Positions 31,953 through 62,324 of a stretch of DNA of 64,000 bases are shown piece by piece. The translations under genes were made by a program, and so were the position numbers. The notes below the pieces were generated by a model. The model saw only the letters and a program-made list of their open reading frames with translations. It did no database searches and was not told the DNA's origin. Each line of letters opens with the position of its first letter. Position 1 is the first letter of the stretch. Origin of the DNA: a bacterium (GTDB taxonomy: Bacteria > Patescibacteriota > Minisyncoccia > Phycocordibacterales > PALSA-1337); NCBI GenBank assembly GCA_025355565.1, contig JANXZK010000022.1, positions 3,490 through 67,489 of the forward strand, written 5' to 3'.

Positions 31953-31964
31953 GTCTTGTGTCTT

Positions 31965-33092: not shown

Positions 33093-33114
33093 GTTGGATA
33101 CAATACCACATCTA

Positions 33115-33936: not shown

Positions 33937-33938
33937 TA

Positions 33939-35225: not shown

Positions 35226-35262
35226 AGTTTGCAGTCTAATACAAAACTGCCAGAATCTCAAT

Positions 35263-40382: not shown

Positions 40383-41225
40383 TCAAGTGCGTATATAAAC
40401 AAACAAGATCCGTAGATATGCCTTGGCTATTCCAAGCATAGGTCTCGGATATTTTTGACTGTTCTTGCGTACGATCTCTAGGATCTCGCGCGCGACAGTG
40501 AGCCGTTTCTTTTTTGTTATATTTTCACCGTGAATCCTATATCCTGATAATACCTGCGGAATATTGGTGAACTTATGCTTATTGCCGATCTTTAGCCATA
40601 GATCATAATCATCGCATATCTTGTATTCCGTCGAATAACCCTGAGCTTCGAGCGCAGCGGATTTGCGATATAACAATGTCGATTGCGCGAATGGGTTGTA
40701 TTGCAGGATGATGTTTCGGATAAGCGAATCATAGATAGGGAATAGGACTTTTTTCAACGGCTTTGAATCGATGTCGATATGCATGATGCCCCCGCCTAGC
40801 ATGGCGTAATCGGGATTTTCATCGAGGAACTCCACCTGTTTTCGGAGCTTTTCTCTGTCGAGCCAGACGTCGTCAGAGTCTAGTGGAGCTATGTAAGGGG
40901 CGCGAGCGAGGGAGAGGGCTCTGTTTCGTGTTGCGGCGATGCCGAGATTCTTTTCATTCTTGATGATGCGGATCCTCGGGTCATGTCCAAATCCACTGGC
41001 CTTTTCCGTCGTTTTGTCGGTCGATCCATCGTCTATGATGATGAGCTCGTAGTCTTCAAATGATTGGGCCAGTACGCTGCGGATGCTCTCCGCGATGAAT
41101 CTCTCGCGGTTGTAGGCGGGCATGATGACGGAGACTTTGGGTGTGTGAGTGTTGCTCGCACCCTTCCGTTTCTCGCTATTTGATTGGTGATTTTGTGTGG
41201 GCATGGGAGTTTGGTCGGTTGCCAA
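40383..41225 (-). CDS. glycosyltransferase family 2
   Basis: VSVIMPAYNRERFIAESIRSVLAQSFEDYELIIIDDGSTD is the GT2 N-terminal signature, with a DxD motif. Confidence 0.8.
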   Translation of the reverse strand: MATDQTPMPTQNHQSNSEKRKGASNTHTPKVSVIMPAYNRERFIAESIRSVLAQSFEDYELIIIDDGSTDKTTEKASGFGHDPRIRIIKNEKNLGIAATRNRALSLARAPYIAPLDSDDVWLDREKLRKQVEFLDENPDYAMLGGGIMHIDIDSKPLKKVLFPIYDSLIRNIILQYNPFAQSTLLYRKSAALEAQGYSTEYKICDDYDLWLKIGNKHKFTNIPQVLSGYRIHGENITKKKRLTVAREILEIVRKNSQKYPRPMLGIAKAYLRILFVYIRT

Positions 41226-41261
41226 GATTCTTTTGTTGGCACATGTGGATGTAGCATTGAT

Positions 41262-42149
41262 CTATAGACGTATCCATGAATTAGGAATGATGTCACGGTA
41301 ATTTCTTTCGTCTTTCTGTGTCCATCTTTTTGGAGCTATCACAATCTTATCACTTTTTTTGTCGAGCCAAGCACCCCACCAGCTGAATGATGAATTGGCA
41401 ATGATGTGGTGGTTGCATAGACTCATGAGATACATTTCCTCGTAGTCAGGGATCAGAGGGGATGAAACATAAGTAGTGGGGTATTGAAACAGCATATTTT
41501 CCATTACCCAATCAATGTCATCGGAAAAAACAAATAGGTGAATGCCCGTGCCGATCTTTGAAGTGATATATTCGATAGCTTTGGAATAGTAGTCAGCATC
41601 ACATGTCCCATGATATTGATTGGTATTCAGGTCGGAAACATAATCGCCTCGGCGGACGTGCAGTGAGACACTGTGATCTGTTTTATTTATCAATCCGCTC
41701 ATATTCAGAGTTTTGGCGCTGAATGGAACGATAATTTTTAGATCATTCCGAATCTGCTGTTCCTTATCCATAAAATATTTTTGTGTTTGAAAGAATCCAT
41801 CGAGATACAGGTCTTTTCTTTTTGTGGCAAATATTTCTTCATTGAATCCGATATTGTATTGATGAAAGGATTTCGCTCTAACGAATCTCAATCCCTTTGA
41901 AATAATGCCGTATGGATATTTGGAGGCTCTGATCTCCTCTGGGGTCGCAATATCTGCCTTTATGTTAAATGTAGATAGGGAATAATGTCGCATGGTGTCG
42001 ATGCCGTTATGTTCTCCATAGCCTGCGACGTCCAATTTTAGTTGCGTAGCGCTGCCATTCTGATCTTTTTGTCGCAGCGAGAGTGCCCTTCCTGTCGCGT
42101 ACTGGAAGATTTGATTACCAAGACCGCCTTTCAGGTTTATTATGATCAT
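41262..42149 (-). CDS. glycosyltransferase family 11 (alpha-1,2-fucosyltransferase-like)
   Basis: The N-terminal IINLKGGLGNQIFQYATGRAL is GT11 motif I. Confidence 0.8.
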   Translation of the reverse strand: MIIINLKGGLGNQIFQYATGRALSLRQKDQNGSATQLKLDVAGYGEHNGIDTMRHYSLSTFNIKADIATPEEIRASKYPYGIISKGLRFVRAKSFHQYNIGFNEEIFATKRKDLYLDGFFQTQKYFMDKEQQIRNDLKIIVPFSAKTLNMSGLINKTDHSVSLHVRRGDYVSDLNTNQYHGTCDADYYSKAIEYITSKIGTGIHLFVFSDDIDWVMENMLFQYPTTYVSSPLIPDYEEMYLMSLCNHHIIANSSFSWWGAWLDKKSDKIVIAPKRWTQKDERNYRDIIPNSWIRL

Positions 42150-42152
42150 AGA

Positions 42153-43055
42153 TTATTGTAATAAATCTTTGACTAGATTTAATTTTTCTCTTGGCAAAAA
42201 GAGTATGTTTGTGTATGTATAAGAGGATTTTATATCGCATCTTTCTATGAAACCAGAATCAGACATATTGTATGACTCATAGTTCGCTTTGAGTAATAGG
42301 TCAGATGATATTTTTCTGTTTTCTGACCATTTATCGTCACCGGCCATTTCCAGTGTTATGAGAGGTCGTGACGTTTTCAGTGTTTCTTTCAGGCCTGCAA
42401 TGATCTTGTATTCCAGTCCTTCTGCATCTAATTTTATAAAATCCGGTGTTATCGAGCGCTGTTTGAAGAATTCGTCGAGCCTGATGGTTTTGGCGACGAT
42501 CTTTTTCGGTTCAAAATTTAATATCGTGCCTTCTTTGCTAGCACTGTTGTATGCTCCATATCCAGGGCCATAATCAGAAAATGAAGTTTCACCATCTTGA
42601 TCGGATGCTGCAATGTTGAAAGTGTAAACGTTGTGCTTATCTTTTATATTTTCTTTGAGTAGCTCATAGGTCCATGGCGTCGGCTCGAATGCGCAGACTT
42701 TTCCTATATTTCCCGTGAGATTGCTAGCCAGCATGGAATAGAAACCTATGTGGGCGCCAACATCAATAAAGGTTGATCCTTCTTTAAGGTACCGTAATAA
42801 GAATGCTGCCAGGTTGGCCTCGCAGTAGCCATAATAATAAAAAGTATTTGCTTCAGGCAAATAGCCTATCATCTTGTCTCCCCAAAGTGTTGCGAAAGTG
42901 ATTTTGTAAGGTTTGAGGTGGCTCGCGGCTGCTAGAATATAATATGGGAGCGTACGAAAAGGTTTTCTTAGCAACCTCGAGATTCGATTCATAGATCGGA
43001 GTTTTTCATTGCAGAATATCTCATTAAGTATGTTATTTTTCTGTATATGATCCAT
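42153..43055 (-). CDS. FkbM-family methyltransferase
   Basis: FIDVGAHIGFYSMLAS SAM-binding motif and FkbM-type architecture. Confidence 0.75.
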   Translation of the reverse strand: MDHIQKNNILNEIFCNEKLRSMNRISRLLRKPFRTLPYYILAAASHLKPYKITFATLWGDKMIGYLPEANTFYYYGYCEANLAAFLLRYLKEGSTFIDVGAHIGFYSMLASNLTGNIGKVCAFEPTPWTYELLKENIKDKHNVYTFNIAASDQDGETSFSDYGPGYGAYNSASKEGTILNFEPKKIVAKTIRLDEFFKQRSITPDFIKLDAEGLEYKIIAGLKETLKTSRPLITLEMAGDDKWSENRKISSDLLLKANYESYNMSDSGFIERCDIKSSYTYTNILFLPREKLNLVKDLLQ

Positions 43056-43067
43056 TATATTTGAATA

Positions 43068-44147
43068 TTATATCTTATCAATACTTGGTTTTTGTTGATT
43101 GCTGATAGTATCATAAAAATAGGTATTAAGAATATGTTCGGAGGTCGACTTTTTATTATTCAGATTGGCATATATGTTTATCCATTCAAGAAAAGACATC
43201 TCTTGGTCATTTCTTATAACCTTATATTCCAAACGGCGATATTCACGCTCTCGTGCATATTTATGCCAATAAATATCAATGCTTTGTGAATCAAAAATGC
43301 AAAAAAATTTGCTATAACAGTACCAGCTATCGGCAATAGTCCACGACATTTCATGCCCGATATTTTCAAGATAGTTTGCGGATAGGTATACCTCGGCAAG
43401 CCTAGCTTTGGACCAATCGCCAACAGTTTTGTTCGGAGGGTAAATTTCTCGAATATCTTGATCGATCTCCCAATATTTGATCACATCATCAGTTCGGCCA
43501 AACATTACCTGATCTGTCAGACTGTATGGACGATATTTGAATGTATTTAAGCTTGGGAAGGCGAGTCTCATCTTCTGTCTTGGATTATCTGATGGAAAAA
43601 CTTTGATAAGATTTACCAAGAAGTCTATAGCATTTGGATTGTATATTCGCAGATCAGTTCTCGTTTTAAGAATGAAATCAAAATCGAGTTCCTTTGCTCT
43701 TTTGGTAGCACTGAGGGTGGATGTAACCTGGTAATTAATATTAGCAATACCAGGCCGCGGAGGTTTCATGTTTAATATTATTTCGATATTTTCACATCGA
43801 ATTTTTCGTAAATATTCCGGATCCTCATCATCCCATGTCGATAGTAGTATTTTACAGTTAGAATATATTTTTTTATAAAGTCTGATCGTTTCCAGGGTGA
43901 ACTGATCTTTTCTGAGAAGTGGCCCCTGGATGATGATCAACACCTTGGGATGTACTATTAATGAATCTGCCACCGAGTTATTTTCTGATGCCAATTTTGG
44001 TCTTAGATGATAAGTAAAGTATTTGTTAGATATATATTCTATGAGATTTAGTGCAGCGACTCTGCAGTTTATAGATTTTATACATGTTCTGATATTATTC
44101 ATATTTTTGTTATGAGCTGTTTCAGTAAATTGGGGTAATCTGTGCAT
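43068..44147 (-). CDS. hypothetical polysaccharide-biosynthesis protein (WavE-like?)
   Basis: 359-aa ORF inside the glycan locus. Weak resemblance to LPS or capsule biosynthesis proteins of unknown function. Confidence 0.35.
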   Translation of the reverse strand: MHRLPQFTETAHNKNMNNIRTCIKSINCRVAALNLIEYISNKYFTYHLRPKLASENNSVADSLIVHPKVLIIIQGPLLRKDQFTLETIRLYKKIYSNCKILLSTWDDEDPEYLRKIRCENIEIILNMKPPRPGIANINYQVTSTLSATKRAKELDFDFILKTRTDLRIYNPNAIDFLVNLIKVFPSDNPRQKMRLAFPSLNTFKYRPYSLTDQVMFGRTDDVIKYWEIDQDIREIYPPNKTVGDWSKARLAEVYLSANYLENIGHEMSWTIADSWYCYSKFFCIFDSQSIDIYWHKYAREREYRRLEYKVIRNDQEMSFLEWINIYANLNNKKSTSEHILNTYFYDTISNQQKPSIDKI

Positions 44148-44956
44148 ATCGCATCTGGTTTAAGCAATAATATATTATCTATTCTTTTTCTGAGTTTAGC
44201 AAAGTCTCGAGCGTCCTGGTGAGATTCGTTTTTCAGAAGTCCTGGAGAAGATCCGTGAAGTTCAGGACTGACAATGGCGATTTTCAATTGCTTATCGCGT
44301 AACCTTTCGATAGTATTGAAGGTATATAATTCTTTTGTTCCGCCGTCAATATCCGATCTGTCCCATTCGTCTAACCAAACCCAGTTGAACAATTGGTCAA
44401 ATTGTAATACATCATCAACGGACATCAGAGTTCCACCTACAGCCGCATTGTATCTAAATATGTCATACTTGTGCGCTACCGAAGGGGCTAGGCAAATTGT
44501 TGGTAGGCGTTGTTTTAAATAAATGGCTGTTTCAGGTATCAGATCGAAAATGACCAATCTACTGAGTGTCTGCGGTTGTGTCTCCAAGGAGGATATTAAT
44601 ATGTTAAGATGTTTTTCATTTTGAAACTTACTTTTGAGATGCAACGCATTCAGAGGAGAAGTGCTTCTGAGAATCAACGCCAATAACTCTTCTAAATCGC
44701 AAAAATGTCCTTTCGGTAGATTAATATCTCGTATTTCTTTTGAGGTCATCTCAGAAAGCCTTTTTTGACCTACTTGTGGCACAAATCTTTTCAAGTTATC
44801 ATCATGGAATGTTATAAGCTTATCATCTTTTGAGATAATAATATCAAATTCTATTCCAAAACCCCTCGCAAGTTGATCAGAGAATGCCTCTATAGTACTT
44901 TCAGTAAAAAAAGACACATTCTCTGGTTCTAAACCTCGATGAGTCAGAATCTGCAT
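44099..44956 (-). CDS. glycerophosphodiester phosphodiesterase family protein (GDPD)
   Basis: MQILTHRGLEPEN...ESTIEAFSDQLARGFGIEFDIIISKDDKLITFHDDNL matches the GP-PDE catalytic motif pattern (HRG...E.DV....DG.....HD). Confidence 0.7.
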   Translation of the reverse strand: MQILTHRGLEPENVSFFTESTIEAFSDQLARGFGIEFDIIISKDDKLITFHDDNLKRFVPQVGQKRLSEMTSKEIRDINLPKGHFCDLEELLALILRSTSPLNALHLKSKFQNEKHLNILISSLETQPQTLSRLVIFDLIPETAIYLKQRLPTICLAPSVAHKYDIFRYNAAVGGTLMSVDDVLQFDQLFNWVWLDEWDRSDIDGGTKELYTFNTIERLRDKQLKIAIVSPELHGSSPGLLKNESHQDARDFAKLRKRIDNILLLKPDAICTDYPNLLKQLITKI

Positions 44957-44962
44957 GTAAAT

Positions 44963-45709
44963 TTATATCTTAATCTTACCTACTTCAAGTTTATTGACGA
45001 ATGCTTTCAGATCTTCTGGTGTTCCTAGACCATGCATCTTGCTGATTTCGATATCGTATATACCAACATTCTTGTTGTTTAATATCAGCTCATTATAAGT
45101 CGGACACACATAAAACTCGTTATTAAAACGGATATTTTTTTCGATCATGTTCTGGGCACTTTGCACGAAATCTGACCCTTTCTTATAATAGTATATGCCG
45201 ACTGTGGCTTTGTCAGATATAACCTTCTTCTCCGCAACTTCGATAACTAATCCTTTAGCGTCGATACGGGCGTAACTCCATTTCGGGTGAGAAGAGGGGA
45301 ATGTCATTATCAGCCCGTCACAGCTCTTTTGTTGTCCATGTTTAATGAATGCGTCTATGTTGGTTTCGACGAACTGGTCCGAGTTTGCGATCAGCAGATC
45401 GTTATCGTCGTTGATGAATCTCATCGCAGTCAAAACAGTACAGGCCGCTCCTTCCGTTATTCCATCGATCTGGATGACTTCAAACTTGTTACGCGTAGCG
45501 TTTTTTAGGACATTGAAAAAATCATACTTGTCATAATGTTCTTTTTGGCAAATGAAGATGAATCTGTGGTTGCATTTTGGTCGCAGATTGTTCACGACCA
45601 CCTCTATCATTGTCTTACTTTTGATCTCGATCAGTGGTTTAGGAAATGCATAACCAGCATCCTTGAACCTCGAACCTCTGCCTGCCATAGGAATTACTAT
45701 ATTTAACAT
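44963..45709 (-). CDS. sugar/alcohol-phosphate nucleotidyltransferase (LicC/IspD-like NTP-transferase)
   Basis: LNIVIPMAGRGSRF...FPKPL is the nucleotidyltransferase G-x-G-T-R-like motif. Confidence 0.6.
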   Translation of the reverse strand: MLNIVIPMAGRGSRFKDAGYAFPKPLIEIKSKTMIEVVVNNLRPKCNHRFIFICQKEHYDKYDFFNVLKNATRNKFEVIQIDGITEGAACTVLTAMRFINDDNDLLIANSDQFVETNIDAFIKHGQQKSCDGLIMTFPSSHPKWSYARIDAKGLVIEVAEKKVISDKATVGIYYYKKGSDFVQSAQNMIEKNIRFNNEFYVCPTYNELILNNKNVGIYDIEISKMHGLGTPEDLKAFVNKLEVGKIKI

Positions 45710-45721
45710 GTTAGTTTGATA

Positions 45722-46045
45722 TTATTGGATAATGTATTTATCATTCCTGGCAGATGGGGTCTTGATCACGGCGGTGTAGCCAGATTCGAGGCATTTGAAT
45801 TTAGATGATTCGCCTGGTTCGAGTAGTACGATATCTCCCTCGGATAATACGTCACTGTTCATATAGAATTTTCCAGTAATTATGACCGAGATCTCTTTTG
45901 CAATAGCGTGATAATGCCGTTCTTCTTCATCTCCAGTCTGATATTTCTTTATGCCAAATTCGAATTTATCTGTTTTCAATACACTGGGTTCAAAATCACC
46001 TACTAACCAGCCTCTAGTAAAGTCCTTTAATCGTTGTATTTTCAT
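45722..46045 (-). CDS. cupin-domain protein
   Basis: 107 aa containing the His-containing segment ERHYHAIAKEISVIITG. Candidate sugar-nucleotide isomerase (WxcM-like) or regulator. Confidence 0.45.
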   Translation of the reverse strand: MKIQRLKDFTRGWLVGDFEPSVLKTDKFEFGIKKYQTGDEEERHYHAIAKEISVIITGKFYMNSDVLSEGDIVLLEPGESSKFKCLESGYTAVIKTPSARNDKYIIQ

Positions 46046-46048
46046 ATA

Positions 46049-46654
46049 TTATAATATATCTTTAAATAGTGATAAGTGCACATCTTGAACGCCTTTAACT
46101 TCATAGACAACCGCGCCACTGGCTCTACCAGCAGCAATTCCGTGAGGCGAATCTTCTACGATTATTGCTTCAGCAGGCTTGATGTTAAGTTTATTGAACG
46201 CAGTAATGTATATCTCTGGATGAGGTTTTGAATTCTTTACTTCGTCATTGCCTATGATCAGATCAAAATAATCAAAGAGTTGGGCGGACCTTAGCATCAA
46301 GTGTAGTGTGTCTTTTATCGAGTTTGAACAACATGCAATTTTATACCCATTATTTTTCAGGTGTTTAAGCATGATAATTTTTGAGTAATCGGGAATGCAG
46401 TAGACAGGTATGATCTCTTTGGTGTATTTTTGCTTAATCGAATTTATTGTTTCACAGAGGCCCGTAGGAAGTCTTCCAAGCTCTTCGAGCCTACTGATCT
46501 TCTTTCGCGTAGGTAGACCGTTGAAATAGGTAACATGTTCATCTATATCTATCTCAGCACCAAATAATCGTAGGGCTTTATTCAACGATTCATAATGTCC
46601 TTGTGGCATATCTACCAAGACGCCATCGAGATCAAATAGTATTGCCTTTATCAT
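46049..46654 (-). CDS. HAD-superfamily hydrolase (beta-phosphoglucomutase-like subfamily IA)
   Basis: MIKAILFDLDGVLVD is HAD motif I. Confidence 0.7.
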   Translation of the reverse strand: MIKAILFDLDGVLVDMPQGHYESLNKALRLFGAEIDIDEHVTYFNGLPTRKKISRLEELGRLPTGLCETINSIKQKYTKEIIPVYCIPDYSKIIMLKHLKNNGYKIACCSNSIKDTLHLMLRSAQLFDYFDLIIGNDEVKNSKPHPEIYITAFNKLNIKPAEAIIVEDSPHGIAAGRASGAVVYEVKGVQDVHLSLFKDIL

Positions 46655-46686
46655 AGGACAAACTATACTCCTGGAGGGCGCTTATT

Positions 46687-47598
46687 TCAAGCAAACATCA
46701 TCCTCAGTTTGTAGACGATCTTTTTTAACAGATTTGTCTTGTATAGCTTTCTATAATGATATCGATCAGCCTGATCGTTTGTGGCCAGTGTGTGGGGATG
46801 AACTATATTAGTCAGGTTTTCGGTGGCAATCGACAAGCCAAGATCTCCTTTTGTATGGGTGGCATCTGGGCCAAAACCTATATTTGTCACTAAGTTATAG
46901 TTAGGAATGATACCGATGCCTCCGTGACTCCAGATAGTAAAAAGCCACTTAACATCCCAGAAAATAAACTTTCCGCTATATTCTTTTTGAAAGAAACCTA
47001 ACCAGTAGCGTTGTTCATTAACGGCTCTTCTAGGCACTATTTCGTGAATTTTGTTTTTTGCAATAAAATCAGGAAACTCTCTCATGTTCTTGTCATATAA
47101 TCTCCATGCTCGCCTCCAAGTGGCCCATCCCCAGGTGGATGGGTATATAGAAAAATAGTATGAAGCATTGCCGCGTTTTTTTCCATCTTGAAAATTACTG
47201 CCAGAAATATTCATGACCTTTTGACTATCTTTGTAATGTTCGAGGAGTTCTTGGCAATAGTAGAAAAAAGAATCGTTGGGAAGACAGTCATCTTCAAGAA
47301 TAATCCCATTTTCAACGTGTTCAAAAAACCAATTTATGCTTAATTCAATAGTAATACTGCCACCATGATTTTCTCCATAGTATTTCCTGAATACTTCACA
47401 CGGCCAATCAATATTTTGAACGGCATTTCTCGTTTCTTCACATAGCTCAGCTTCTTCTTTTTTATCGAGTCTGGCACCGTCGGCAGCAATAAATAATTTT
47501 GTCGGCTTGATTTTTCTTATAGCTGCAAAAACCTGTTTAGTAACATCTGGACGATTGAATATCATTAATAATATCGGCGTTTGAAATGAGTTTTCCAT
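46687..47598 (-). CDS. putative GT-A-fold glycosyltransferase (HlpA-like), hypothetical
   Basis: PILLMIFNRPDVTKQVFAAIRKIKPTKLFIAADGAR resembles the N-terminus of GT-A-fold transferases. Confidence 0.35.
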   Translation of the reverse strand: MENSFQTPILLMIFNRPDVTKQVFAAIRKIKPTKLFIAADGARLDKKEEAELCEETRNAVQNIDWPCEVFRKYYGENHGGSITIELSINWFFEHVENGIILEDDCLPNDSFFYYCQELLEHYKDSQKVMNISGSNFQDGKKRGNASYYFSIYPSTWGWATWRRAWRLYDKNMREFPDFIAKNKIHEIVPRRAVNEQRYWLGFFQKEYSGKFIFWDVKWLFTIWSHGGIGIIPNYNLVTNIGFGPDATHTKGDLGLSIATENLTNIVHPHTLATNDQADRYHYRKLYKTNLLKKIVYKLRMMFA

Positions 47599-47624
47599 GA
47601 CAGGAAGATCGATATTTATGATCG

Positions 47625-48617: not shown

Positions 48618-48628
48618 AATAGTCGTGA

Positions 48629-49093: not shown

Positions 49094-49128
49094 GTCATTT
49101 TATGTGGTGACTTTAGGCGGAACACATA

Positions 49129-50127: not shown

Positions 50128-50145
50128 AAAATTAATCGATACATA

Positions 50146-52635: not shown

Positions 52636-52697
52636 GCATCGTTTTGTTATTTTATAATGATTTCCAGTATAAGCATTTTGTCGAACATTTACAATAT

Positions 52698-55750: not shown

Positions 55751-56777
55751 GATTTCTCTTTATGAAATTGTACCCAATAATTTCGTGGGCTGCTGTGTTC
55801 ATATACTCGTAAAAAGCTCTAAAGTCGATCTGGTAGCCGTTATTCCATCTTTCTAGTAATTCGTCCTGATGGATATCGCCATGACGATTATCGACGTCAG
55901 TTTGTACTCTGTTGCAAGGTATGTTGAATAGTCTAGATTTTTTATATGCTATACCGAAGCGTTGCAAAAAAATAGGGTTGAATATTTGCAGGTTTCCTTC
56001 GTAAGTATTTGGCGATGAGAAGGATATGTATTTGGTCATTGCGAGTATCTCTTTAGTAGAAAATACATGGCCGTCTAAAGATATCGGATATCCCCAATCA
56101 AATGTCCCTTCATTCCATTTCCAGCGTATTTTGCCGGTTTGTCCGCCTTCCATGGAGACGAACTTTGGTAATGGTTGAGGGCTATCTGCGTTATATGATG
56201 TCTGGAGATTAGATCCCAATCTTAAACTTAAGACTGAGTTACGAGTATCTACATTATTTATCTCTGATATATCGATCTTTTCTGTTATGAGAATATCATC
56301 CACCAAGAAAAACATCTTATCCGTGTTAATGTTTTCCAAAACATCAATGAGTTGGTTGTGAAATGAAGAATCATTATTTTGTTCGACAAACTGTATGGAT
56401 CTTGATTTTAATGACTTTATTATTTCAGAATACGCTCGCGCAAAACTTCTATTCGTAGCACGAAATAGAACAAATATTGGTATAGTGGTACTTGCATTAT
56501 CTAGGAATGAGGAAATCAACCCGTGAAGTTGCATTGGTCTGTTCATAGAGAATATGATACAGCAGATTCCGCGTGTTAACGCTTTATCGTCAGATATAAC
56601 GCTATTATAAAAATTTGATAAGGACTCAATTTTTTGCTCGTTTTTACGACATATTTTTGGTCCATATGTAGTCGGTTTTAACCCAATGGCTGAAAAAAGT
56701 CGGTCCATCATCCTAATAAATAAGTGCCAGCTTCGATGATACATTCGGATTATTTTTATATTATCGTGATTGGACAT
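55740..56777 (-). CDS. hypothetical protein (possible glycosyltransferase-like)
   Basis: 345-aa ORF embedded in the glycan operon. No clear motif. Confidence 0.3.
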   Translation of the reverse strand: MSNHDNIKIIRMYHRSWHLFIRMMDRLFSAIGLKPTTYGPKICRKNEQKIESLSNFYNSVISDDKALTRGICCIIFSMNRPMQLHGLISSFLDNASTTIPIFVLFRATNRSFARAYSEIIKSLKSRSIQFVEQNNDSSFHNQLIDVLENINTDKMFFLVDDILITEKIDISEINNVDTRNSVLSLRLGSNLQTSYNADSPQPLPKFVSMEGGQTGKIRWKWNEGTFDWGYPISLDGHVFSTKEILAMTKYISFSSPNTYEGNLQIFNPIFLQRFGIAYKKSRLFNIPCNRVQTDVDNRHGDIHQDELLERWNNGYQIDFRAFYEYMNTAAHEIIGYNFIKRNHDQ

Positions 56778-57810
56778 ATGTTGTTATTCTCGTACAAAAC
56801 AGATAGTAGTTGTTTTTCAAGTATTCAGTTTCAGCATTGTATGTTTTGGTATATGTCTTGGAAACATCCGAGAGATTTTCTGCAAACAAGAATGTATCGT
56901 TGGATTTTTGATAAGCCAGCAGCAGATATTTAGCCTTAAAGTAATCGACATTTTTTACATACCTTTGCATAAACTCATTTGATTCCGACAGTGCCCATGT
57001 ACTAACAAATAAATCAACATGTTCATTGGTTAGCAGTTTACCAATCTTTTCCAGTATTTTTTTGTCCAATGGTATTATGTTTATCAACCCCTTTTTTATT
57101 TGAATATTTTGGCCATGAACCATGTTGATAGCTGAGCTTCCAAAAATTGCTTTTAGGTAAAGAGCTTGAATATATGAGAATATGGGGATGTCAATGATAG
57201 TGTAGGTACAATCATAATTAATCTGCTTATATATCTTTGCAAGGTTGCCGTATCCTCCACCGACTTCAACAACATTGTTTATGTCTCCTAGTTTAGTTTT
57301 TGTTTCTAAGCAGAATTTTGTCAGGTGATAGAGGTGATGAATATTATTTCCAGATGTAAAGTATTCGATATCATTTAACATTGGTTTTCCGACGTTATAT
57401 TCACGTAAGATGTTTCTAGCGGAACGCAAATCGTAATGGTCAGAAATCAGTCGTTTTTGAATTTCTTTCCAACCTCGGAAACTATAAACGAACATAGTGT
57501 TCTTGATTACGGGGTAGTTGAGAAAAGAAAAAGAGAAGTTATGTAAATAATAGTTTTCGATTTCACTCGTGTTTTTTCTCCATTGATCAATCACAAAATC
57601 AGCATAATCATATTTGTCTTTGTTTTCCAGATATAGATTTTTCATTTCGTGATATATTGTTTTGTACAATTTCTGACCAATTCGTCTTGAAAACGGTGAG
57701 ACGAGTTGAGAATAAATGGTTTTATATAAATCTAAAACGGTTGTATTCCGTTTTATTTTAGAGACTAACTCCCGTATTCTATTTTTCATTTTTTTGAATT
57801 CTGAAATCAA
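56761..57810 (-). CDS. putative SAM-dependent methyltransferase-like protein
   Basis: VVEVGGGYGNLAKIY is a GxGxG-type motif in the class I methyltransferase context. 349 aa. Confidence 0.4.
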   Translation of the reverse strand: MISEFKKMKNRIRELVSKIKRNTTVLDLYKTIYSQLVSPFSRRIGQKLYKTIYHEMKNLYLENKDKYDYADFVIDQWRKNTSEIENYYLHNFSFSFLNYPVIKNTMFVYSFRGWKEIQKRLISDHYDLRSARNILREYNVGKPMLNDIEYFTSGNNIHHLYHLTKFCLETKTKLGDINNVVEVGGGYGNLAKIYKQINYDCTYTIIDIPIFSYIQALYLKAIFGSSAINMVHGQNIQIKKGLINIIPLDKKILEKIGKLLTNEHVDLFVSTWALSESNEFMQRYVKNVDYFKAKYLLLAYQKSNDTFLFAENLSDVSKTYTKTYNAETEYLKNNYYLFCTRITTYVQSR

Positions 57811-59047
57811 ATAATAATGCCATCCGCCCTATGCTATTTCCACCATAAATCAATGATCTCGGATTATTTTTGTCGTCAATAATCTCAATGCCTAGATTCA
57901 ACTTATGATCAAACGTCATTATCATTGGTCTGTGAATGTTGACATTGTAGAGAAATAACCCAGTATTGAATGTGAATGGCGGTATCTCGGCTGTGACTGA
58001 GTAATCACCTACCTCGAGGTTGCCGACATCCATCGTCTTGTCAGAAGGGGATGCGAGAAGCAATATTTCTCCTTGATCAAAGAATGCCAGTGACACCATC
58101 GTCTTGGTAAGTGGTTTGAAAACAGAAATATCTGTCTTGATAAAGAATCTTTCTGAGACCGGTATTCTAGCCGACGGTTTTTCATCTTTATCGAGAATAG
58201 TGACTCTGGAGATTTGTGCATCTTTGCTATTGTCAACGCTAAAATCAGTGATGGCGTTCGCGTGCTCGCCTTTGTTCAAATAGTGGTGTATCACCTTATC
58301 AGTGTCATCGAACATCTTGAACTCGCCTTTTTCGAGCAGGATAGATTTTTTGCATAGATTCTGTATAACGCCCATATTATGGCTTACGAACAATATTGTC
58401 CTGCCTTCTTTTTTTGAAATCTCATCCATCTTTCCTAGACATTTCTTTTGGAACTCCGTATCACCGACGGCTAACACTTCATCGACGATCAATATATCTG
58501 GTTCCATGTGAGCGGCGACTGAAAAGGCGAGCCGGACATACATGCCGCTCGAGTAATATTTTACTGGAGTATCGAGGAACTTTTCGATGCCAGCAAATTC
58601 GACGATCTGATCGAATTTCTTGACTATCTCTCTTTTTGTCATACCGAGGATCGCACCATTTAACATGATGTTTTCTCGTCCAGTGAGCTCTGGGTGAAAA
58701 CCGGTACCGACTTCTAGTAGACTGCCGACAGTTCCGTGAATCTTGATCTCACCAGTTGTTGGTGGTGTGATCTGGGAGATGATCTTTAGTAAAGTTGATT
58801 TGCCTGCACCATTTCTGCCGATGATGCCTATAACCTCTCCTTTGTTAACTGAAAAGTTTAGATCTTTCAGTGCCCAATAATCTTCTCTGGATTGGAAACC
58901 TGTAACTTGTTTCGCTTTTGCTTTTAGAAAACTAAACGGAGACTTGAGCGCATTCATTAAAACGTCGCGCAGAGATATGTATCTGCCTTGCTGATGGTTT
59001 ATGTTGTATTTCTTTCCTAGATTTTTTACTTCAATGATTGGTTCCAT
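57779..59047 (-). CDS. wzt: polysaccharide ABC exporter ATP-binding protein (Wzt/TagH-like) with a C-terminal carbohydrate-binding extension
   Basis: Walker A GIIGRNGAGKSTLLKII, LSGG-like signature YSSGMYVRLAF, Walker B ILIVDE, plus a C-terminal non-ABC domain of about 150 aa. Confidence 0.85.
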   Translation of the reverse strand: MEPIIEVKNLGKKYNINHQQGRYISLRDVLMNALKSPFSFLKAKAKQVTGFQSREDYWALKDLNFSVNKGEVIGIIGRNGAGKSTLLKIISQITPPTTGEIKIHGTVGSLLEVGTGFHPELTGRENIMLNGAILGMTKREIVKKFDQIVEFAGIEKFLDTPVKYYSSGMYVRLAFSVAAHMEPDILIVDEVLAVGDTEFQKKCLGKMDEISKKEGRTILFVSHNMGVIQNLCKKSILLEKGEFKMFDDTDKVIHHYLNKGEHANAITDFSVDNSKDAQISRVTILDKDEKPSARIPVSERFFIKTDISVFKPLTKTMVSLAFFDQGEILLLASPSDKTMDVGNLEVGDYSVTAEIPPFTFNTGLFLYNVNIHRPMIMTFDHKLNLGIEIIDDKNNPRSLIYGGNSIGRMALLFDFRIQKNEK

Positions 59048-59052
59048 ATATT

Positions 59053-59877
59053 TTATACTATATCTGCGAAATACCTTTCGACTTTCTTAAATATATAAAT
59101 GCCTACGAACAGCAATACTAAGCATGCCACGAACGATATTCCGATAAGTTCCCAGTTGATGGGTGCCGTTCCCAATAGAGCAGCGCGAGCACTCTGTATC
59201 GCTCCAGTCATCGGATTTAGAGCTAGTAAGTACGAATACTTTCCAGCGATGCTTGCAGGATATATGACTGGTGTGATGAATAACAACATTTGGATGAAGA
59301 ATGGGAGAGCGTATCTGACGTCGCGATATTTTACATTGATTGACGCTAGAATGAGCCCGAAACCGACTGATGCCATGAATGAAATGATCAAGACCAGTGG
59401 GATCACGATGATGCTCGACGGTTGGGGTGCAAATCCATAGAAGATCATCATTACTGCCAAGATTATAGCGGCGATGAAAAAGTCGACTAATTTTGTTAAT
59501 ACTGACGAAAGTGGCAAAATTAGGCGAGGAAAATATACTTTTGTAATGATCGCTTGATTTGCAATGAGACAGTTGCTGGTTTCACTCAATGCCGTTGAAA
59601 AAAACTGCCAAAATAGGAGCCCTGTGAATACGAAGATAGGATAGGGGATGCCATCTGATGGGACCTTCGCAAGACTTCCAAAAAAAACAGTAAAAACAAC
59701 CATGGTTATAAGCGGTTGGAATATAGCCCATGCGATGCCGATCATCGTCTGTTTATATCTAACCTTCAGGTCTCTCCATGTAAAGAAATACAATAGTTCC
59801 TTGTATTGCCAGAGCTCTTTGAGATCAGATAGGTGAAAAAGCTTCTTTGGTCTGATGACCGTGACCTTTGTTGACAT
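59053..59877 (-). CDS. wzm: ABC-2 type polysaccharide exporter permease (Wzm/TagG-like)
   Basis: Six predicted transmembrane helices and the ABC-2 family signature region. Translationally adjacent to wzt. Confidence 0.8.
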   Translation of the reverse strand: MSTKVTVIRPKKLFHLSDLKELWQYKELLYFFTWRDLKVRYKQTMIGIAWAIFQPLITMVVFTVFFGSLAKVPSDGIPYPIFVFTGLLFWQFFSTALSETSNCLIANQAIITKVYFPRLILPLSSVLTKLVDFFIAAIILAVMMIFYGFAPQPSSIIVIPLVLIISFMASVGFGLILASINVKYRDVRYALPFFIQMLLFITPVIYPASIAGKYSYLLALNPMTGAIQSARAALLGTAPINWELIGISFVACLVLLFVGIYIFKKVERYFADIV

Positions 59878-59939
59878 ATGCCCATCCTACCATAACCTTG
59901 CTCCCTTGTTGAGTATTTGCTATTTATTCAGTATGATGT

Positions 59940-62324
59940 ATGAATTCTGCAAATTATCATAACAATCGACAGAAGATATCCACATTTAATACGTCTATGA
60001 AAATAATAACCAAATATATTTCGATCGTCGCTCTGTTCCTGGTACCGCTCTTTCCCCTCATTGTCGCCAACTCCTATTTCTTCCCATTCATCACGGGTAA
60101 AGCGTTCTTTTTCCGTATTGTTGTGGAGATCGCCTTTGCGGCGTGGATTATTTTGGCATTTCTAGATGCCAAATATAGGCCAAGGTTTACTTTGCTCAAT
60201 GTCGGCGTAACATTGTTCGCAGTAGTCGCTCTCATCGCAGATCTCCTTGGTGTCAATCCGATGCGCAGTCTCTGGTCCAACTTCGAACGCATGGAAGGTT
60301 GGATAGTGATAGTACATCTATGGGCATTCTACATAACTTCAACAAGTTTGTTCGGTGCTTTGACTGCAACGGGGGCAGGCGCAGTGGCTGGTGGTACTGG
60401 TGGTGGAGCTGGTGCGGCATGGAAGAAGATCTGGCACAGATGGCTAAACTGTTCTCTAGCGATCGCCACAATCATCTCACTTTATGGTATCGGACAATTG
60501 CTCGGCTGGTTCGCTATCCACCAGTCAGCTGCTCGTCTCGATGCGACGATCGGTAACTCCGCGTATCTCGGTATCTACATAGTGATCCATATGTTCATCG
60601 TTGCCTATATGTATTTTGCCGTCAGGAGTGATGAGTTTAATGGAAAAAAATTCCTTCAATGGGCGTATCCGGTGTTATTCGTTTTCTTTGGATTCATCGC
60701 TCTCGAGACTCAGACTCGCGCGGCAGTATTGGGTCTCGGCACAGGGCTCATGATCGGGTTACTGCTTTACACGATCTTTGCCGGAAAGTCGCGCAATGGC
60801 TATGGTCATTTGCATGCCGGCCAAACAAACGCTGATCGTTCACACGGTGATATATCGATGTCGAGCACATCCCTCAACAAGAGCCGTAAAGTTACAGGCA
60901 TCATTTTTGGTGTGATCATCTTGCTCGGCATATCGTTCATCGTTGAAAGGAAACAGCCGTTCTTTGCGAACAGCCCGATATTTGGCCGCCTAGCTAGCCT
61001 CTCATTATCCCAGTTCCAAAATGAAGGCCGTGCATACATCTGGCCCATGGCGATAAAGGGTGGTCTAGAGAGACCTATCTTCGGATGGGGTCAAGAGAAT
61101 TTTAATTACATATTCAATGCCAACTATGCTCCGCAAATGTATGGTCAGGAACAATGGTTTGACCGCGCGCATAGCGTATTCCTCGATTGGTTCGTGGCAT
61201 CCGGATTCGTTGGTTTGTTCGCATATCTCGCTCTATTCGTGCTGGTCCTAATCACCATCTGGAAAGCTGACCTCTCGTCGTTGTCGGTGGCCAAAAAATG
61301 CGTATTGACAGGTCTCATCGTCGCTTACGCTGTGAACAACTTGGCTGTGTTTGATAACCTCGCGAGCTACGTATTCTTCTTTGCGGTTCTCGCATTTGTG
61401 AATTCATTCAGGGAAGGGAAGCAGATCCGCTCGCTCGGCGTAACTCCTGTCCGTATCGATGCTGTCGAATATATCGTCGCACCGATCGTCATCGTTCTTT
61501 TGGTGGTTGTCGTCTATATGCTCAACGTTCGACCTATCCAAGCCAACACTCGTCTCATTACCGCTTTGAGAAGTTGTGGCAGTGGCAAGCCGGATGCGTC
61601 CTTGTTCGAAAGCGCTCTCGGGGTGAATACGTATGTTGCTAACCAGGAGATCCGAGAGCAGTTGTTCTCATGCGCGACACAGGTCATCTCGAGCCAACAG
61701 AGCCCAAATCAATTGAAACAACGATTTTTCGCATTGACTTCTAGTGAGATCGCGGCACAGATCAAGGCGACTCCGAAAGATGCTCGGGCTTATGTTCTCG
61801 GCGGTTCATTCATGAATGATGTCGGTCAGGTAGCAGAAGGGTTGTCATTGTTCGAGAAGGCTCATGAACTCTCACCGGCAAAACAGTCCGTAAGTATTGC
61901 TCTCGCCAATGACTACTTGAGCGCCGGTAAGAAAGATGAGGCGGTCGCGCTCTTGGAACAGGCGTATCAGTCAGAGACGGATGATTTTTCAGCAAAAGTC
62001 TCATACGCGAGCGGTCTGGTTTTGACGGGCAAAGAAACAGAGTCTAGAGCTATGTTCGCCAATGATCCAGCGATCTTTGATACCCAACAGATGGCCAATA
62101 TCTTTGCGTCGCTGAAACAATATTCTAAGGCGATCGAGATCTATAACCAGCTGATCGGTACTAGTACCAAGGATGTGAATCTGATGGGATCATTGGCTCA
62201 ACTGCAATATACGGCTGGTTTGAAAGACGCGGCTGTGAGGACCTTGCAAAGTATTCTCGTCGATCATCCGGAGTATAAAAATCAAGTCGACGGGGCGGTC
62301 AAGCAGATCAGGAGTGGGAAGTAA
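59940..62324 (+). CDS. polytopic membrane protein with an O-antigen ligase/Wzy_C-like domain and C-terminal TPR repeats (candidate O-oligosaccharyltransferase or ligase)
   Basis: At least ten predicted transmembrane helices. The Wzy_C-like loop motif FDRAHSVFLDWFVASGFVGL, a Gly/Ala-rich insert (TATGAGAVAGGTGGGAGAA) and a TPR-like region of about 250 aa at the C-terminus. Confidence 0.6.
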   Translation: MNSANYHNNRQKISTFNTSMKIITKYISIVALFLVPLFPLIVANSYFFPFITGKAFFFRIVVEIAFAAWIILAFLDAKYRPRFTLLNVGVTLFAVVALIADLLGVNPMRSLWSNFERMEGWIVIVHLWAFYITSTSLFGALTATGAGAVAGGTGGGAGAAWKKIWHRWLNCSLAIATIISLYGIGQLLGWFAIHQSAARLDATIGNSAYLGIYIVIHMFIVAYMYFAVRSDEFNGKKFLQWAYPVLFVFFGFIALETQTRAAVLGLGTGLMIGLLLYTIFAGKSRNGYGHLHAGQTNADRSHGDISMSSTSLNKSRKVTGIIFGVIILLGISFIVERKQPFFANSPIFGRLASLSLSQFQNEGRAYIWPMAIKGGLERPIFGWGQENFNYIFNANYAPQMYGQEQWFDRAHSVFLDWFVASGFVGLFAYLALFVLVLITIWKADLSSLSVAKKCVLTGLIVAYAVNNLAVFDNLASYVFFFAVLAFVNSFREGKQIRSLGVTPVRIDAVEYIVAPIVIVLLVVVVYMLNVRPIQANTRLITALRSCGSGKPDASLFESALGVNTYVANQEIREQLFSCATQVISSQQSPNQLKQRFFALTSSEIAAQIKATPKDARAYVLGGSFMNDVGQVAEGLSLFEKAHELSPAKQSVSIALANDYLSAGKKDEAVALLEQAYQSETDDFSAKVSYASGLVLTGKETESRAMFANDPAIFDTQQMANIFASLKQYSKAIEIYNQLIGTSTKDVNLMGSLAQLQYTAGLKDAAVRTLQSILVDHPEYKNQVDGAVKQIRSGK

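Follow-up and report, generated by a model that had tools for sequence, protein, structure and literature searches.

The slg clusters of Geobacillus stearothermophilus NRS 2004/3a and Paenibacillus alvei are of low GC content and combine wzm/wzt export genes with a 2-O-methyl cap (WsaE) and a Wzy_C O-oligosaccharyltransferase (O-OTase; WsaB/WsfB) that carries a TPR domain or lies next to one (PMC2943079). The locus described here, from a Taylorbacteria-like member of the Patescibacteria (CPR), resembles them in its host without LPS and in its tight, low-GC arrangement of wzm/wzt, methyltransferase and nucleotide-sugar genes. Its Wzy_C transferase has a counterpart in WsfB, with a C-terminal TPR, or in WsaB with the neighboring TPR protein WsaA, a comparison at the level of described domains (PMC2943079). 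It differs in its predicted heptose/6-deoxyheptose, where slg clusters have rhamnose, in the absence of an S-layer gene and a WbaP/WecA primer from the window (the whole 64,000-nt stretch analyzed), and in that the transferase gene lies beyond the variable cassette and belongs to the core gene set of the whole lineage, occurring with Wzm/Wzt or Wzx in relatives.

A second comparison is with ABC-dependent O-antigen systems that use WaaL (E. coli O8/O9a; Aquifex aeolicus WzmWzt; Cupriavidus WaaL, 7TPJ), which share with the locus Wzm, a Wzt C-terminal domain alignable to that of A. aeolicus, and a transferase of WaaL fold. Whereas WaaL has about 400-420 aa, the transferase here has 775, with a 13th TM helix and an extra extracellular TPR domain. 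Patescibacteria are not known to possess an outer membrane or a lipid A-core. The Wzy_C domain is also common to the lipoteichoic-acid ligase TacL and the pilin O-OTases PglL/TfpO (PMC3643930, PMC5727136), but unlike PglL/TfpO the transferase here gives no Pfam match to PglL_A (PF15864) and has no adjoining pilin gene. For sugar supply, the GDP-6-deoxy-heptose pathways of C. jejuni (DdahA), Yersinia pseudotuberculosis (DmhA/DmhB) and Burkholderia pseudomallei (WcbK/L/M/N) are closest (PMC10680097); the locus shares with them an HddA/WcbL-type kinase, GmhB, a nucleotidyltransferase and a 4,6-dehydratase, but it has no C4-reductase, C3/C5 epimerase or gmhA, and its nucleotidyltransferase is ManC-like rather than HddC-like.

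A glycan locus had been proposed at 40383-62324, with 23 co-oriented genes running from 59877 to 40383. The locus is real and its coordinates and strand stand, but the ORF listing gives 21 co-oriented minus-strand genes at 40383-59877, spaced by -49 to +62 nt (Table 1). GC is 0.32-0.41 in the cassette 41262-57810 and 0.44-0.54 in the flanking core genes; the distal GT2 gene, at 0.48, is at core-genome level. Pfam and NCBIfam annotation recovered Wzm/Wzt, sugar-activation, glycosyltransferase and methyltransferase families, and the three or four methyltransferases of the preliminary description turned out to be three (FkbM, class-I and NanM-type). There are up to eight glycosyltransferase domains when unassigned and marginal candidates are included, namely three GT2, GT11 and a GT9-fold module, together with three GT-A-like proteins whose assignment is missing or marginal. 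We favor, with moderate confidence, the reading that this is an ABC-dependent island for a methylated heptose-glycan, which the Wzy_C-TPR protein transfers en bloc to an acceptor, most likely a surface protein. What is directly established in this reading comprises the identities of the domains, their folds, the synteny and the conserved residues.

Table 1. Features of the glycan locus in window coordinates, with supporting matches
Feature	Coordinates	Strand	Support
Wzy_C-TPR membrane protein, predicted glycan ligase/oligosaccharyltransferase	59997..62324	+	divergent; core gene
Wzm, ABC-2 permease of glycan exporter	59053..59877	-	PF01061 64.8 bits; NCBIfam galactan/KpsM-type permease
Wzt, ABC ATPase with C-terminal carbohydrate-binding-type domain (residues ~263-422)	57779..59047	-	ABC_tran 84.9 bits
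NanM-type putative sugar O-methyltransferase	56761..57810	-	TIGR04371 52.7 bits (cutoff 44)
345-aa (334-aa) protein without family	55740..56777	-	68 homologues
GT2 glycosyltransferase, 357 aa	54677..55750	-	PF00535 119 bits
660-aa fusion, predicted heptosyltransferase	52698..54680	-	N-terminal GT2 (1-~260), helical/hydrophobic linker, compact GT9-fold module (~411-660)
Nucleotide-heptose 4,6-dehydratase-like SDR (DmhA/DdahA-like; GDP_Man_Dehyd)	51631..52635	-	PDB 7US5
Sugar-1-phosphate nucleotidyltransferase, HddC role	50891..51634	-	PF00483 142 bits
Class I SAM methyltransferase, inside heptose operon	50146..50934	-	Methyltransf_11 94 bits
HddA/WcbL-type kinase (GHMP kinase)	49129..50127	-	PDB and NCBIfam matches
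GmhB-type heptose-1,7-bisphosphate 7-phosphatase (HAD-IIIA)	48629..49093	-	TIGR01656 127 bits (cutoff 84)
UDP-glucose/GlcNAc 4-epimerase GalE	47625..48617	-	TIGR01179 372 bits (cutoff 262)
303-aa protein with 'EDD' motif	46687..47598	-	recurs in related islands
Second sugar-activation module, three genes	44963..46654	-	HAD-IA, cupin, NDP-sugar pyrophosphorylase-like
HAD-IA beta-phosphoglucomutase-like	46049-46654	-	PDB 3E58/beta-PGM
Small cupin	45722-46045	-	cupin and HAD pair recurs in L009
NDP-sugar pyrophosphorylase-like nucleotidyltransferase	44963-45709	-	NTP_transferase; PDB 4EVW
GDPD-like protein	44099..44956	-	PF03009 42.6 bits, residues 6-92
WavE-like protein, possible glycosyltransferase	43068..44147	-	PF07507 28.2 bits (GA 27), marginal
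FkbM-family methyltransferase	42153..43055	-	TIGR01444 110 bits; PF05050 68.6 bits
GT11 (alpha-1,2-fucosyltransferase family) glycosyltransferase	41262..42149	-	PF01531 113.5 bits
GT2 glycosyltransferase, distal operon end	40383..41225	-	PF00535 124 bits

The divergent gene had been described as encoding a 794-aa protein at 59940..62324. The gene is real, but while its longest ORF starts at 59940, the likeliest start is Met-20 at 59997; the resulting protein has 775 aa, the length of P0001, a public protein of identical sequence. The claimed union of an O-antigen-ligase-like core with TPR repeats is borne out by Pfam (Wzy_C 64.8 bits, GA 31.7, plus TPR) and by structure, a 13-TM domain of WaaL fold followed by an extracytoplasmic C-terminal TPR domain of 263 residues. 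The Arg/Arg/His residues equivalent to WaaL R215/R288/H338, named beforehand as a check on the O-OTase idea, are present; they are common to lipid ligases (WaaL) and O-OTases (PglL) (PMC3643930). The transferase gene belongs to the core genome and is followed downstream by murB and secA. Among 59 informative related loci it adjoins, divergently, Wzm/Wzt in 21 (with Wzm orthologues 68-91% identical) and Wzx in 19, and in 14 no exporter occurs within 10 kb upstream of it; beyond Wzm/Wzt or Wzx lie cassettes of hypervariable gene content.

Both exporter subunits were confirmed by Pfam (ABC2_membrane and ABC_tran). The extra C-terminal domain proposed for Wzt gives a Wzt_C match of 24.5-27.9 bits, under the Pfam GA of 30.4, but the best PDB match, full-length A. 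aeolicus O-antigen Wzt (7K2T/8DKU, 216 bits, residues 54-374), aligns through that domain. Orthologues keep 68-87% identity in the NBD, but their C-terminal domain is hypervariable and similar in only 3 of 23. Recognition of a methyl cap by this domain is plausible, and the hypervariability would fit; a candidate for the chain-terminating methylase is the NanM-type enzyme, whose gene overlaps wzt by 32 nt.

The protein encoded next to it (55740..56777) has no Pfam or NCBIfam match; one of its homologues is named 'Nucleotide-diphospho-sugar...' in UniRef and several are fused to GT2, and it is probably a GT-A-type transferase of an uncharacterized family. The 303-aa protein, likewise without a Pfam match, is represented by orthologues in 13 of 80 loci as well as in the L088/L089 clusters, and its sequence suggests that it, too, is probably a GT-A transferase. 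The GT11 gene, found in 16 of 80 related loci, is fucosyltransferase-like as described earlier. The proposed glycerol- or choline-phosphate decoration was not upheld: the supposed LicC/IspD-like nucleotidyltransferase matches an NDP-sugar pyrophosphorylase instead, the HAD protein is beta-phosphoglucomutase-like, and the GDPD match stops after the N-terminal ~90 residues of the protein, covering just the first third of the domain. No initiating phosphoglycosyltransferase was found in the window or just beyond, where the sole Glycos_transf_4 protein is MraY.

The GT2-GT9 fusion holds for GT2 and for the fold of its partner, but not as a sequence match: the C-terminal half gives no GT9 signal with Pfam PF01075 or in a PDB sequence search, and is GT9-like by fold only. 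In this it differs from the GT9 heptosyltransferases WaaC, WaaF and TibC, as it does in being fused to or neighboring GT2, and at about 230-250 aa it is ~90 residues shorter than WaaC (320-350 aa). The two partners are separate adjoining genes in other loci. Heptose genes lie near homologues of the module in some loci, while two of four neighborhoods have none. Its donor is likely GDP-heptose rather than ADP-heptose.

The four top PDB matches of the kinase are heptose kinases (3K85, 4USK, 4N3O; ~140 bits), with the next family at 46 bits; its best NCBIfam match is HddA (163 bits). The phosphatase scores 144 bits with NF006506 (cutoff 178), and the HddA, GmhB, HddC and Gmd matches all fall under NCBIfam equivalog cutoffs. 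The nucleotidyltransferase is nearer ManC/GMPP than HddC (NCBIfam 111 vs 99.6 bits; PDB, GMPP 87-109 vs HddC 56 bits). The absence of gmhA noted previously extends over the window and just beyond, as does that of any C4-reductase. Of the claimed GDP-6-deoxy-heptose set, heptose activation and the dehydratase are supported. Every characterized route requires a reductase (PMC10680097), and as no C4-reductase is present, the term 6-deoxyheptose reaches to the dehydratase step only.

One could argue that the Gmd-family enzyme instead uses GDP-mannose and feeds a GDP-6-deoxyhexose (D-rhamnose/fucose type) to the GT11 protein, heptose being left unmodified or, because gmhA is absent, possibly not made at all. 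The adjoining nucleotidyltransferase is indeed most like mannose-1-phosphate guanylyltransferases, GT11 enzymes are known for using GDP-fucose, and Rmd is the second-best match of the dehydratase (182 bits). Its best match, however, is the C. jejuni GDP-heptose 4,6-dehydratase 7US5 (210 bits), well above Gmd (105-125 bits); clustering with bona fide Gmd was part of what had been set in advance as the refutation of the heptose reading, which survives on this point. The Gmd equivalog score is 145 bits, far under the cutoff of 415, and the CSTSEVYG and GPRR motifs agree with dehydratases. The dehydratase gene sits among the HddA, GmhB and nucleotidyltransferase genes, with which it is translationally coupled (it overlaps the last of them by 4 nt), and no Fcl or Rmd reductase accompanies it. 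In the related locus L090 a 55%-identical orthologue lies between heptose-pathway genes and a GT9-like module; no mannose genes occur there, and the heptose genes are of ADP-heptose type (PfkB, CTP_transf_like), in contrast to known GDP-6-deoxy-heptose pathways. We consider use of GDP-mannose quite improbable.

The acceptor invites other alternatives. With the same assembly and export, the Wzy_C-TPR protein might ligate the glycan to a membrane glycolipid (lipoteichoic-acid-like or lipoglycan), as Streptococcus pneumoniae TacL does, or WaaL with lipid A-core, no protein being glycosylated. The WaaL fold and catalytic residues would suit this, the lipoteichoic-acid ligase of a Gram-positive is itself a Wzy_C protein (PMC5727136), no acceptor protein gene was found linked to the transferase gene, and the PglL-specific model finds no match. 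Yet TacL (397 aa; PMC5727136) and E. coli WaaL (419 aa) leave no room for such a TPR domain, which occurs in the O-OTases WsfB and PglL (PMC2943079) and whose size points to a protein partner; nor were glycolipid-anchor genes seen in the window. This is the strongest of the alternatives but still unlikely. The least probable, in our view, is that the exported chain serves as a wall polysaccharide, linked to peptidoglycan by a ligase (LCP-type or otherwise) whose gene lies elsewhere, with the Wzy_C-TPR protein merely an adjacent housekeeping envelope enzyme or a polymerase, or itself attaching glycans to peptidoglycan or its precursors. O-OTase activity is plausible by analogy, because the TPR domain is extracellular as in WsfB and PglL (PMC2943079), and our best guess, modeled on Gram-positive S-layer glycosylation clusters, is a protein acceptor. 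That the prepilin-LamG proteins of the window serve as such is pure speculation.

For transfer to a surface protein we propose the following scheme, in which the methyl cap, the acceptor and the carrier lipid are inferred, as are donor sugars other than those that follow from heptose-1-phosphate logic. The HddA-type kinase, GmhB-type phosphatase and nucleotidyltransferase would activate D-glycero-D-manno-heptose, part of which the DdahA/DmhA-like dehydratase would turn towards 6-deoxy-(4-keto)-heptose; GalE would supply UDP-Gal(NAc), and the HAD, cupin and pyrophosphorylase one further activated sugar. Up to eight transferase domains could then assemble the chain at the cytoplasmic face on a polyprenyl-diphosphate carrier, primed by an enzyme encoded elsewhere, and the three methyltransferases would O-methylate it, one probably capping the non-reducing end. 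Wzm/Wzt would export the finished lipid-linked glycan, its terminus being recognized by the variable Wzt domain. Outside the membrane the core-encoded Wzy_C-TPR protein would move it en bloc from the carrier at the Arg-Arg-His site, the TPR domain presenting the acceptor, at best guess a pilin or an S-layer protein, by analogy with WsaB/WsfB. In conclusion, the swappable ~16-kb low-GC cassette of this ultra-small member of the Patescibacteria likely produces a methylated surface glycan with heptose among its sugars; glycan systems of this kind are known, and the lineage in which this one occurs is little studied.

We find that the Wzy_C-TPR gene at the edge of the glycan operon keeps the same setting across many genomes. 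Its 487 relatives confirmed in species-representative genomes are full length and 40–73% identical, with the best of them in Candidatus Taylorbacteria, Paceibacterota and other Patescibacteria MAGs, and murB lies downstream in 53 of 68 loci, with secA, obg and gatB further down. On the upstream, divergent side, 21 of the 59 loci with at least 2.5 kb of sequence carry Wzm/Wzt and 19 a Wzx-type flippase (Polysacc_synt, checked by Pfam); the exporter is farther away in 5, and none lies within 10 kb in the other 14. Past the exporter the gene content is almost wholly different between genomes, with many genes for GT2, for GT11, and for FkbM and other methyltransferases. Given this conserved setting beside variable cassettes, we regard Wzy_C-TPR as a core gene that marks one edge of a variable glycan island. 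As it stays constant across unrelated cassettes and both export routes, it would be a ligase or OTase recognizing the carrier-proximal end of the glycan and a constant acceptor; the same constancy speaks against a Wzy polymerase specific for a repeat unit. Methyltransferases (FkbM, TylF, class I) are unusually numerous in related islands, with up to five to seven each, as seen in two of the related loci (L009 and L002) and in the neighborhood of one homologue of the GT9-like module (L087), and one island has a carbamoyltransferase; this suggests that glycans across the Taylorbacteria-like lineage are heavily O-methylated or carbamoylated.

The identical public protein (P0001, annotated as 'O-antigen ligase family protein') has 775 aa and begins at Met-20, so the true start of the gene is probably at 59997; the 794-aa form gave no exact match in the lookup. 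Wzy_C (PF04932) is matched at 64.8 bits against a GA of 31.7, and the protein has a WaaL-type multi-TM fold with thirteen helices, a clear positive-inside bias and the N-terminus inside, which places a 76-residue catalytic loop and a 263-residue TPR domain outside. The preliminary description had proposed an O-OTase and named conserved loop Arg and His residues as its test; these are present, R241, R345 and H392 being invariant in 55 family members. The hhalign alignment to E. coli WaaL is weak (E 0.005) and pairs ETQTR with LTQTR (R215), G-R-A with G-A-R (R288, with a one-residue offset) and DRAH with HLH (H338), three WaaL residues reported to be important and conserved in PglL (PMC3643930). 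PF15864 (PglL_A), the PglL-specific model that separates PglL from WaaL (PMC3643930), gave no match at E ≤ 0.01. The conserved residues thus confirm a predicted ligase/OTase-type site, one that would be compatible with a lipid or a protein acceptor.

The preliminary description had counted 23 co-oriented genes in the operon; the run itself is present, but the ORF listing holds 21, separated by gaps of −49 to +62 nt, with several overlaps of 4–49 nt. The GC content is 0.44–0.54 in the flanking core genes versus 0.32–0.41 across the stretch spanned by the GT11 and NanM-type methyltransferase genes; wzt and wzm have 0.41–0.42, and the distal GT2 gene has the core value of 0.48. The remaining window is housekeeping (a ribosomal protein operon, EF-Tu, MurC, MurD, MraY, Alr, pyruvate kinase and two tRNAs), apart from two prepilin-LamG proteins. 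Neither tRNAs nor Rfam elements were found at the island borders, and the window contains no LPS genes; Patescibacteria are generally regarded as lacking LPS. The same locus is held by GCA_043724765.1, whose contig ends inside wzt, and the public assemblies of the present genome (L081, and L082 on NCBI JAYSMK010000036.1) are split inside the glycan island. Such island-internal breaks are expected because the region is strain-variable and low in GC, and islands of this kind may therefore be under-represented in MAGs.

Features of the window and of related loci, with their positions
Feature	Sequence	Coordinates	Strand	Remark
Divergent ORF (Wzy_C-TPR)	window	59940-62324	+	longest ORF, 794 aa
Glycan operon	window	59877-40383	-	21 ORFs
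Low-GC stretch	window	41262-57810		GT11 to NanM-type methyltransferase gene
345-aa protein	window	55740-56777	-	in operon
660-aa protein	window	52698-54680	-	N-terminal GT2 and GT9-fold module
GT9-fold module	window	52698-53450	-	residues 411-660 of the 660-aa protein
Dehydratase (SDR)	window	51631-52635	-	in operon
Coupling-protein ATPase	window	38564-40339		591 aa
DUF4015 protein	window	36884-38074		just outside island
ATE_C, 273-aa and ATP-grasp proteins	window	31290-35261		between murC/mraY and next genes
Glycos_transf_4 protein	window	31965-33092		MraY
SIS-like tblastn match	window	30127-30450		within MurC
Prepilin-like proteins	window	752-1594, 8237-9112		Laminin_G_3
Secreted protein	window	2401-3801		466 aa
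345-aa family member fused to GT2	L001	5322-7235		closest related locus
Dehydratase orthologue and heptose genes	L090	6245-9735		ADP-heptose-type
Heptose genes	L088	982-6391		ADP-heptose-type
Methyltransferase-rich regions	L009, L002, L087	5831-7684, 3106-8294, 8220-13578

Several further genes of the window can be noted. Abutting the distal edge of the operon is a TraG/VirD4/HerA-like coupling-protein ATPase of core-like GC with a long C-terminal tail rich in Pro, Ser and Val, and no other conjugation genes were seen. The DUF4015 protein, a putative glycosyl hydrolase (328 bits) with an N-terminal TM helix, has no relatives among the 80 related loci. The ATE_C (arginyl-tRNA-protein-transferase-like), 273-aa and ATP-grasp proteins may be enzymes of a non-canonical peptidoglycan stem peptide or cross-bridge. 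The N-terminal half of the secreted protein is a long coiled coil; this protein has no Pfam or NCBIfam match, and its C-terminal part may, on our own reading, be lytic-transglycosylase-like in look ('QESN...').

Export would be of the ABC type. Wzm matches ABC2_membrane, and Wzt matches ABC_tran and, below threshold, Wzt_C, which scores 24.5 bits with the whole protein and 27.9 with the domain taken alone, against a GA of 30.4 (E 2.6e-6). Its best solved homologue is the full-length O-antigen Wzt of Aquifex aeolicus (7K2T/8DKU; 216 bits), onto residues 32–353 of which (of 404) residues 54–374 align, so that the alignment reaches well into the C-terminal carbohydrate-binding domain. The 23 Wzt orthologues found beside Wzy_C-TPR genes are all 396–457 aa long and have ATPase parts that are 68–87% identical, and the C-terminal ~160 residues are recognizably similar in only three of them. 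This variability fits the pattern expected of a reader of a glycan-specific terminus. It would be compatible with, though it is not proof of, a terminal modification, for instance methylation by one of the operon's three methyltransferases: a NanM-type sugar O-methyltransferase (above cutoff), whose gene overlaps wzt, an FkbM and a class-I enzyme.

The operon also encodes a predicted heptose module. The best NCBIfam match of the GHMP kinase is HddA (NF049969; 163 bits against a cutoff of 600), and its top four PDB matches, at ~140 bits, are all D-glycero-D-manno-heptose phosphate kinases (3K85, WcbL 4USK, HddA 4N3O), with the next family at 46; the HAD-IIIA phosphatase best matches the GmhB models of NCBIfam. 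For the dehydratase, the C. jejuni GDP-heptose 4,6-dehydratase (7US5) comes top at 210 bits, against 182 and 140 for Rmd reductases and 105–125 for Gmd. In the alignments both the dehydratase and 7US5 carry CS[ST]SEVYG and H[ST]GPRR, where Gmd has ESPRRG and both Rmd have GPGQ, and owing to this motif sharing we read the enzyme as a dehydratase and not a reductase. Its gene overlaps by 4 nt that of the upstream nucleotidyltransferase, which in sequence is nearer to ManC/GMPP than to solved HddC, and we therefore infer the nucleotide and sugar of the latter from context.

The preliminary description had read a 6-deoxyheptose pathway here. This holds as far as a predicted 4-keto-6-deoxy intermediate, to which alone the dehydratase product can be traced, but both gmhA, already noted as missing from the window and confirmed as such by our search, and a C4-reductase are absent from the window and its immediate flanks. 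The window has no C3/C5 epimerase either, and past its edges no gmhA, reductase or primer was found before the public contig stops, shortly after murB. Every characterized 6-deoxyheptose route uses a reductase (PMC10680097). On an unrelated metagenomic contig (L090), a 55%-identical dehydratase orthologue has heptose-pathway genes (PfkB kinase, CTP_transf_like) on one side and a GT9-like module homologue on the other, again with no partner C4-reductase. The orthologue there keeps company with ADP-heptose-type and not GDP-heptose-type genes, and these observations suggest either flexible nucleotide specificity or a bifunctional dehydratase/reductase. Some candidates for the missing functions were rejected: the weak SIS-like match considered as gmhA; the only other SDR, which is a bona fide GalE far above the equivalog cutoff (372 bits against 262 in NCBIfam) and thus unlikely to be the C4-reductase; the Glycos_transf_4 protein considered as priming transferase (191.5 bits for MraY against 44 for WecA); and the cupin, as a GmhA substitute or, with the HAD and NTP-transferase proteins, as part of a PMI/PMM/GMPP set, ideas that no similarity supports, the cupin of L090 being unrelated at E < 1e-3.

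The 660-aa protein had been described as a GT2-GT9 fusion, and its N-terminal GT2 domain, the GT9-type GT-B fold of its C-terminal module and the fusion itself all stand; membership of the Pfam GT9 family, or any match to it at sequence level, does not. The C-terminal ~250 residues have no Pfam match even at E ≤ 5 (PF01075 is absent), a profile search against the PDB matched no solved chain, GT9 included, and hhalign of the module against WaaC (E 0.13) covers just 24 residues around G-x-G-D-x-L. An exhaustive HMM search found 626 cluster representatives at E ≤ 1e-3 among 1.84 billion, mostly stand-alone proteins of 230–280 aa along with some ~660-aa fusions, and the family members (P0121–P0132, P0201–P0348) usually stand alone with a GT2 gene ahead. 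In two homologue neighborhoods (L088 and L089) the gene directly ahead of the module encodes a separate GT2, 49–53% identical to residues 1–283 of the 660-aa protein, which identifies our protein as a fusion of the two. The window, L088 and L090 each have heptose genes adjacent to the module, whereas L087 and L089 have none in 9 kb; behind the L088 module come a methyltransferase, SIS_2 (GmhA), a PfkB kinase and a CTP_transf_like-HAD fusion, an ADP-heptose-type set, and L090 is similar. In none of the 80 Wzy_C-anchored loci did the module co-occur with heptose genes over the 10 kb covered, so the link to heptose comes from the neighborhoods of the homologues themselves. A heptosyltransferase function is plausible for this GT9-like fold.

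The operon genes were identified from Pfam and NCBIfam. Besides those named above there are a marginal WavE match, a GT11 (PF01531, 113.5 bits against a threshold of 23.9, with the C-terminal two-thirds of the model covered) and a small cupin; the operon has three GT2 domains in all, that of the 660-aa protein included, and two NTP_transferases, one of them in the heptose module, and the dehydratase is a GDP_Man_Dehyd-family SDR. Two proteins, of 303 and 345 aa, matched neither database. The former occurs in 13 of the 80 related loci, as well as in unrelated clusters bearing the GT2/GT9-like pair. The latter belongs to a Pfam-less family of ~320-aa proteins, of which ~68 relatives can be detected across diverse phyla (Patescibacteria, Nitrospira, Desulfobacterales, Kiritimatiellota and others); fusions to GT2 occur in several, including that of the closest related locus, and one UniRef relative is named nucleotide-diphospho-sugar transferase, and the family is probably an undescribed GT-A family. 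A glycerol- or choline-phosphate decoration, suggested earlier from a nucleotidyltransferase, a HAD protein and a GDPD, is not well supported by any of the three. As a LicC/IspD-type enzyme the nucleotidyltransferase fails (IspD at 21 bits, below the GA of 27; no match to LicC 1JYK; TagD not the best), and its sole solid PDB match is the NDP-sugar pyrophosphorylase 4EVW; the HAD-IA protein is of the beta-phosphoglucomutase family, and the GDPD match, confined to the first ~90 residues, takes in just a third of the domain. It is simpler to read these genes as a second nucleotide-sugar pathway.

We favor a model, which we hold to be somewhat probable, in which the glycan would be assembled on a lipid carrier, exported in finished form by Wzm/Wzt and handed en bloc to its acceptor by the Wzy_C-TPR protein. 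By analogy, the locus most likely functions like the Gram-positive S-layer glycosylation (slg) clusters, which are of low GC, contain wzm/wzt, make a chain with a methyl cap and have a Wzy_C transferase whose TPR repeats are fused (WsfB, PglL) or adjacent (WsaA/WsaB) (PMC2943079). Going by the described features, the likeness to WsaB/WsfB lies in a Wzy_C domain with a C-terminal TPR and in its position next to wzm/wzt, within a low-GC cluster in a bacterium that lacks LPS.

Within this model the chances that the acceptor is a protein are close to even. No target glycoprotein such as a pilin is adjacent, the conserved neighbors being the exporter, murB, secA and obg, and the prepilin-LamG proteins once proposed as acceptors lie 50–59 kb from the Wzy_C-TPR gene and have normal type IV pilin N-termini with nothing diagnostic of glycosylation. 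These two prepilin-like proteins, which carry Laminin_G_3 (concanavalin-like lectin) domains and have a GC of 0.42, lower than neighboring core genes, are candidate adhesins on pili. Among the rivals, the acceptor may be a glycolipid, as with TacL (PMC5727136), or the product may be a wall polymer that an unseen ligase attaches or that is joined to peptidoglycan itself; the linkage to murB and the SEDS-like fold hint weakly at this. A further rival concerns the sugar, with GDP-mannose instead of heptose as the dehydratase substrate; clustering of the enzyme with true Gmd had been named as what would overturn the heptose reading, and 7US5 is its best match while the Gmd equivalog (TIGR01472) scores 145 bits, far below its cutoff of 415.

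Patescibacteria are rich in surface-modification genes, and their phages bear O-antigen sugar genes (PMC12911398). In the literature searched, this architecture appears for CPR only in general statements, and we found no published description of the exporter|Wzy_C-TPR-murB-secA anchor with interchangeable ABC and Wzx exporters, of a heptose or 6-deoxyheptose module in this lineage, or of the compact GT9-fold family. The analysis flags two glycosyltransferase families without Pfam coverage, the compact GT9-fold module and the family of the 345-aa protein, and a heptose 4,6-dehydratase twice found without its partner reductase. Known principles are left unchanged; the locus carries them into a new lineage and offers targets for testing in heterologous hosts.

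Patescibacteria account for a big part of the diversity of bacteria; they live attached to other cells and have hardly been cultured. Essentially uncharacterized as it is, the chemistry of their surface must mediate both attachment to hosts and recognition by phages. The island amounts to an O-antigen-like serotype locus of a non-LPS bacterium, and the model is testable in its parts: a conserved WaaL-fold/TPR transferase at a fixed site near murB/secA, a swappable ABC or Wzx exporter and a hypervariable low-GC cassette. We speculate further, as a possibility that is on balance unlikely in its entirety, that Wzy_C-TPR is the lineage-wide general glycan-to-surface transferase of Paceibacteria/Taylorbacteria, which would bind the acceptor through its extracellular TPR domain, accept any strain glycan delivered by Wzm/Wzt or Wzx and O-glycosylate S-layer or pilus proteins, the coat here containing methylated 6-deoxyheptose made by a dehydratase without a separate reductase and added by a new compact family of GT9-like heptosyltransferases. 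If this is true, the glycan would form the serotype-like, phage- and host-facing coat of these episymbionts.
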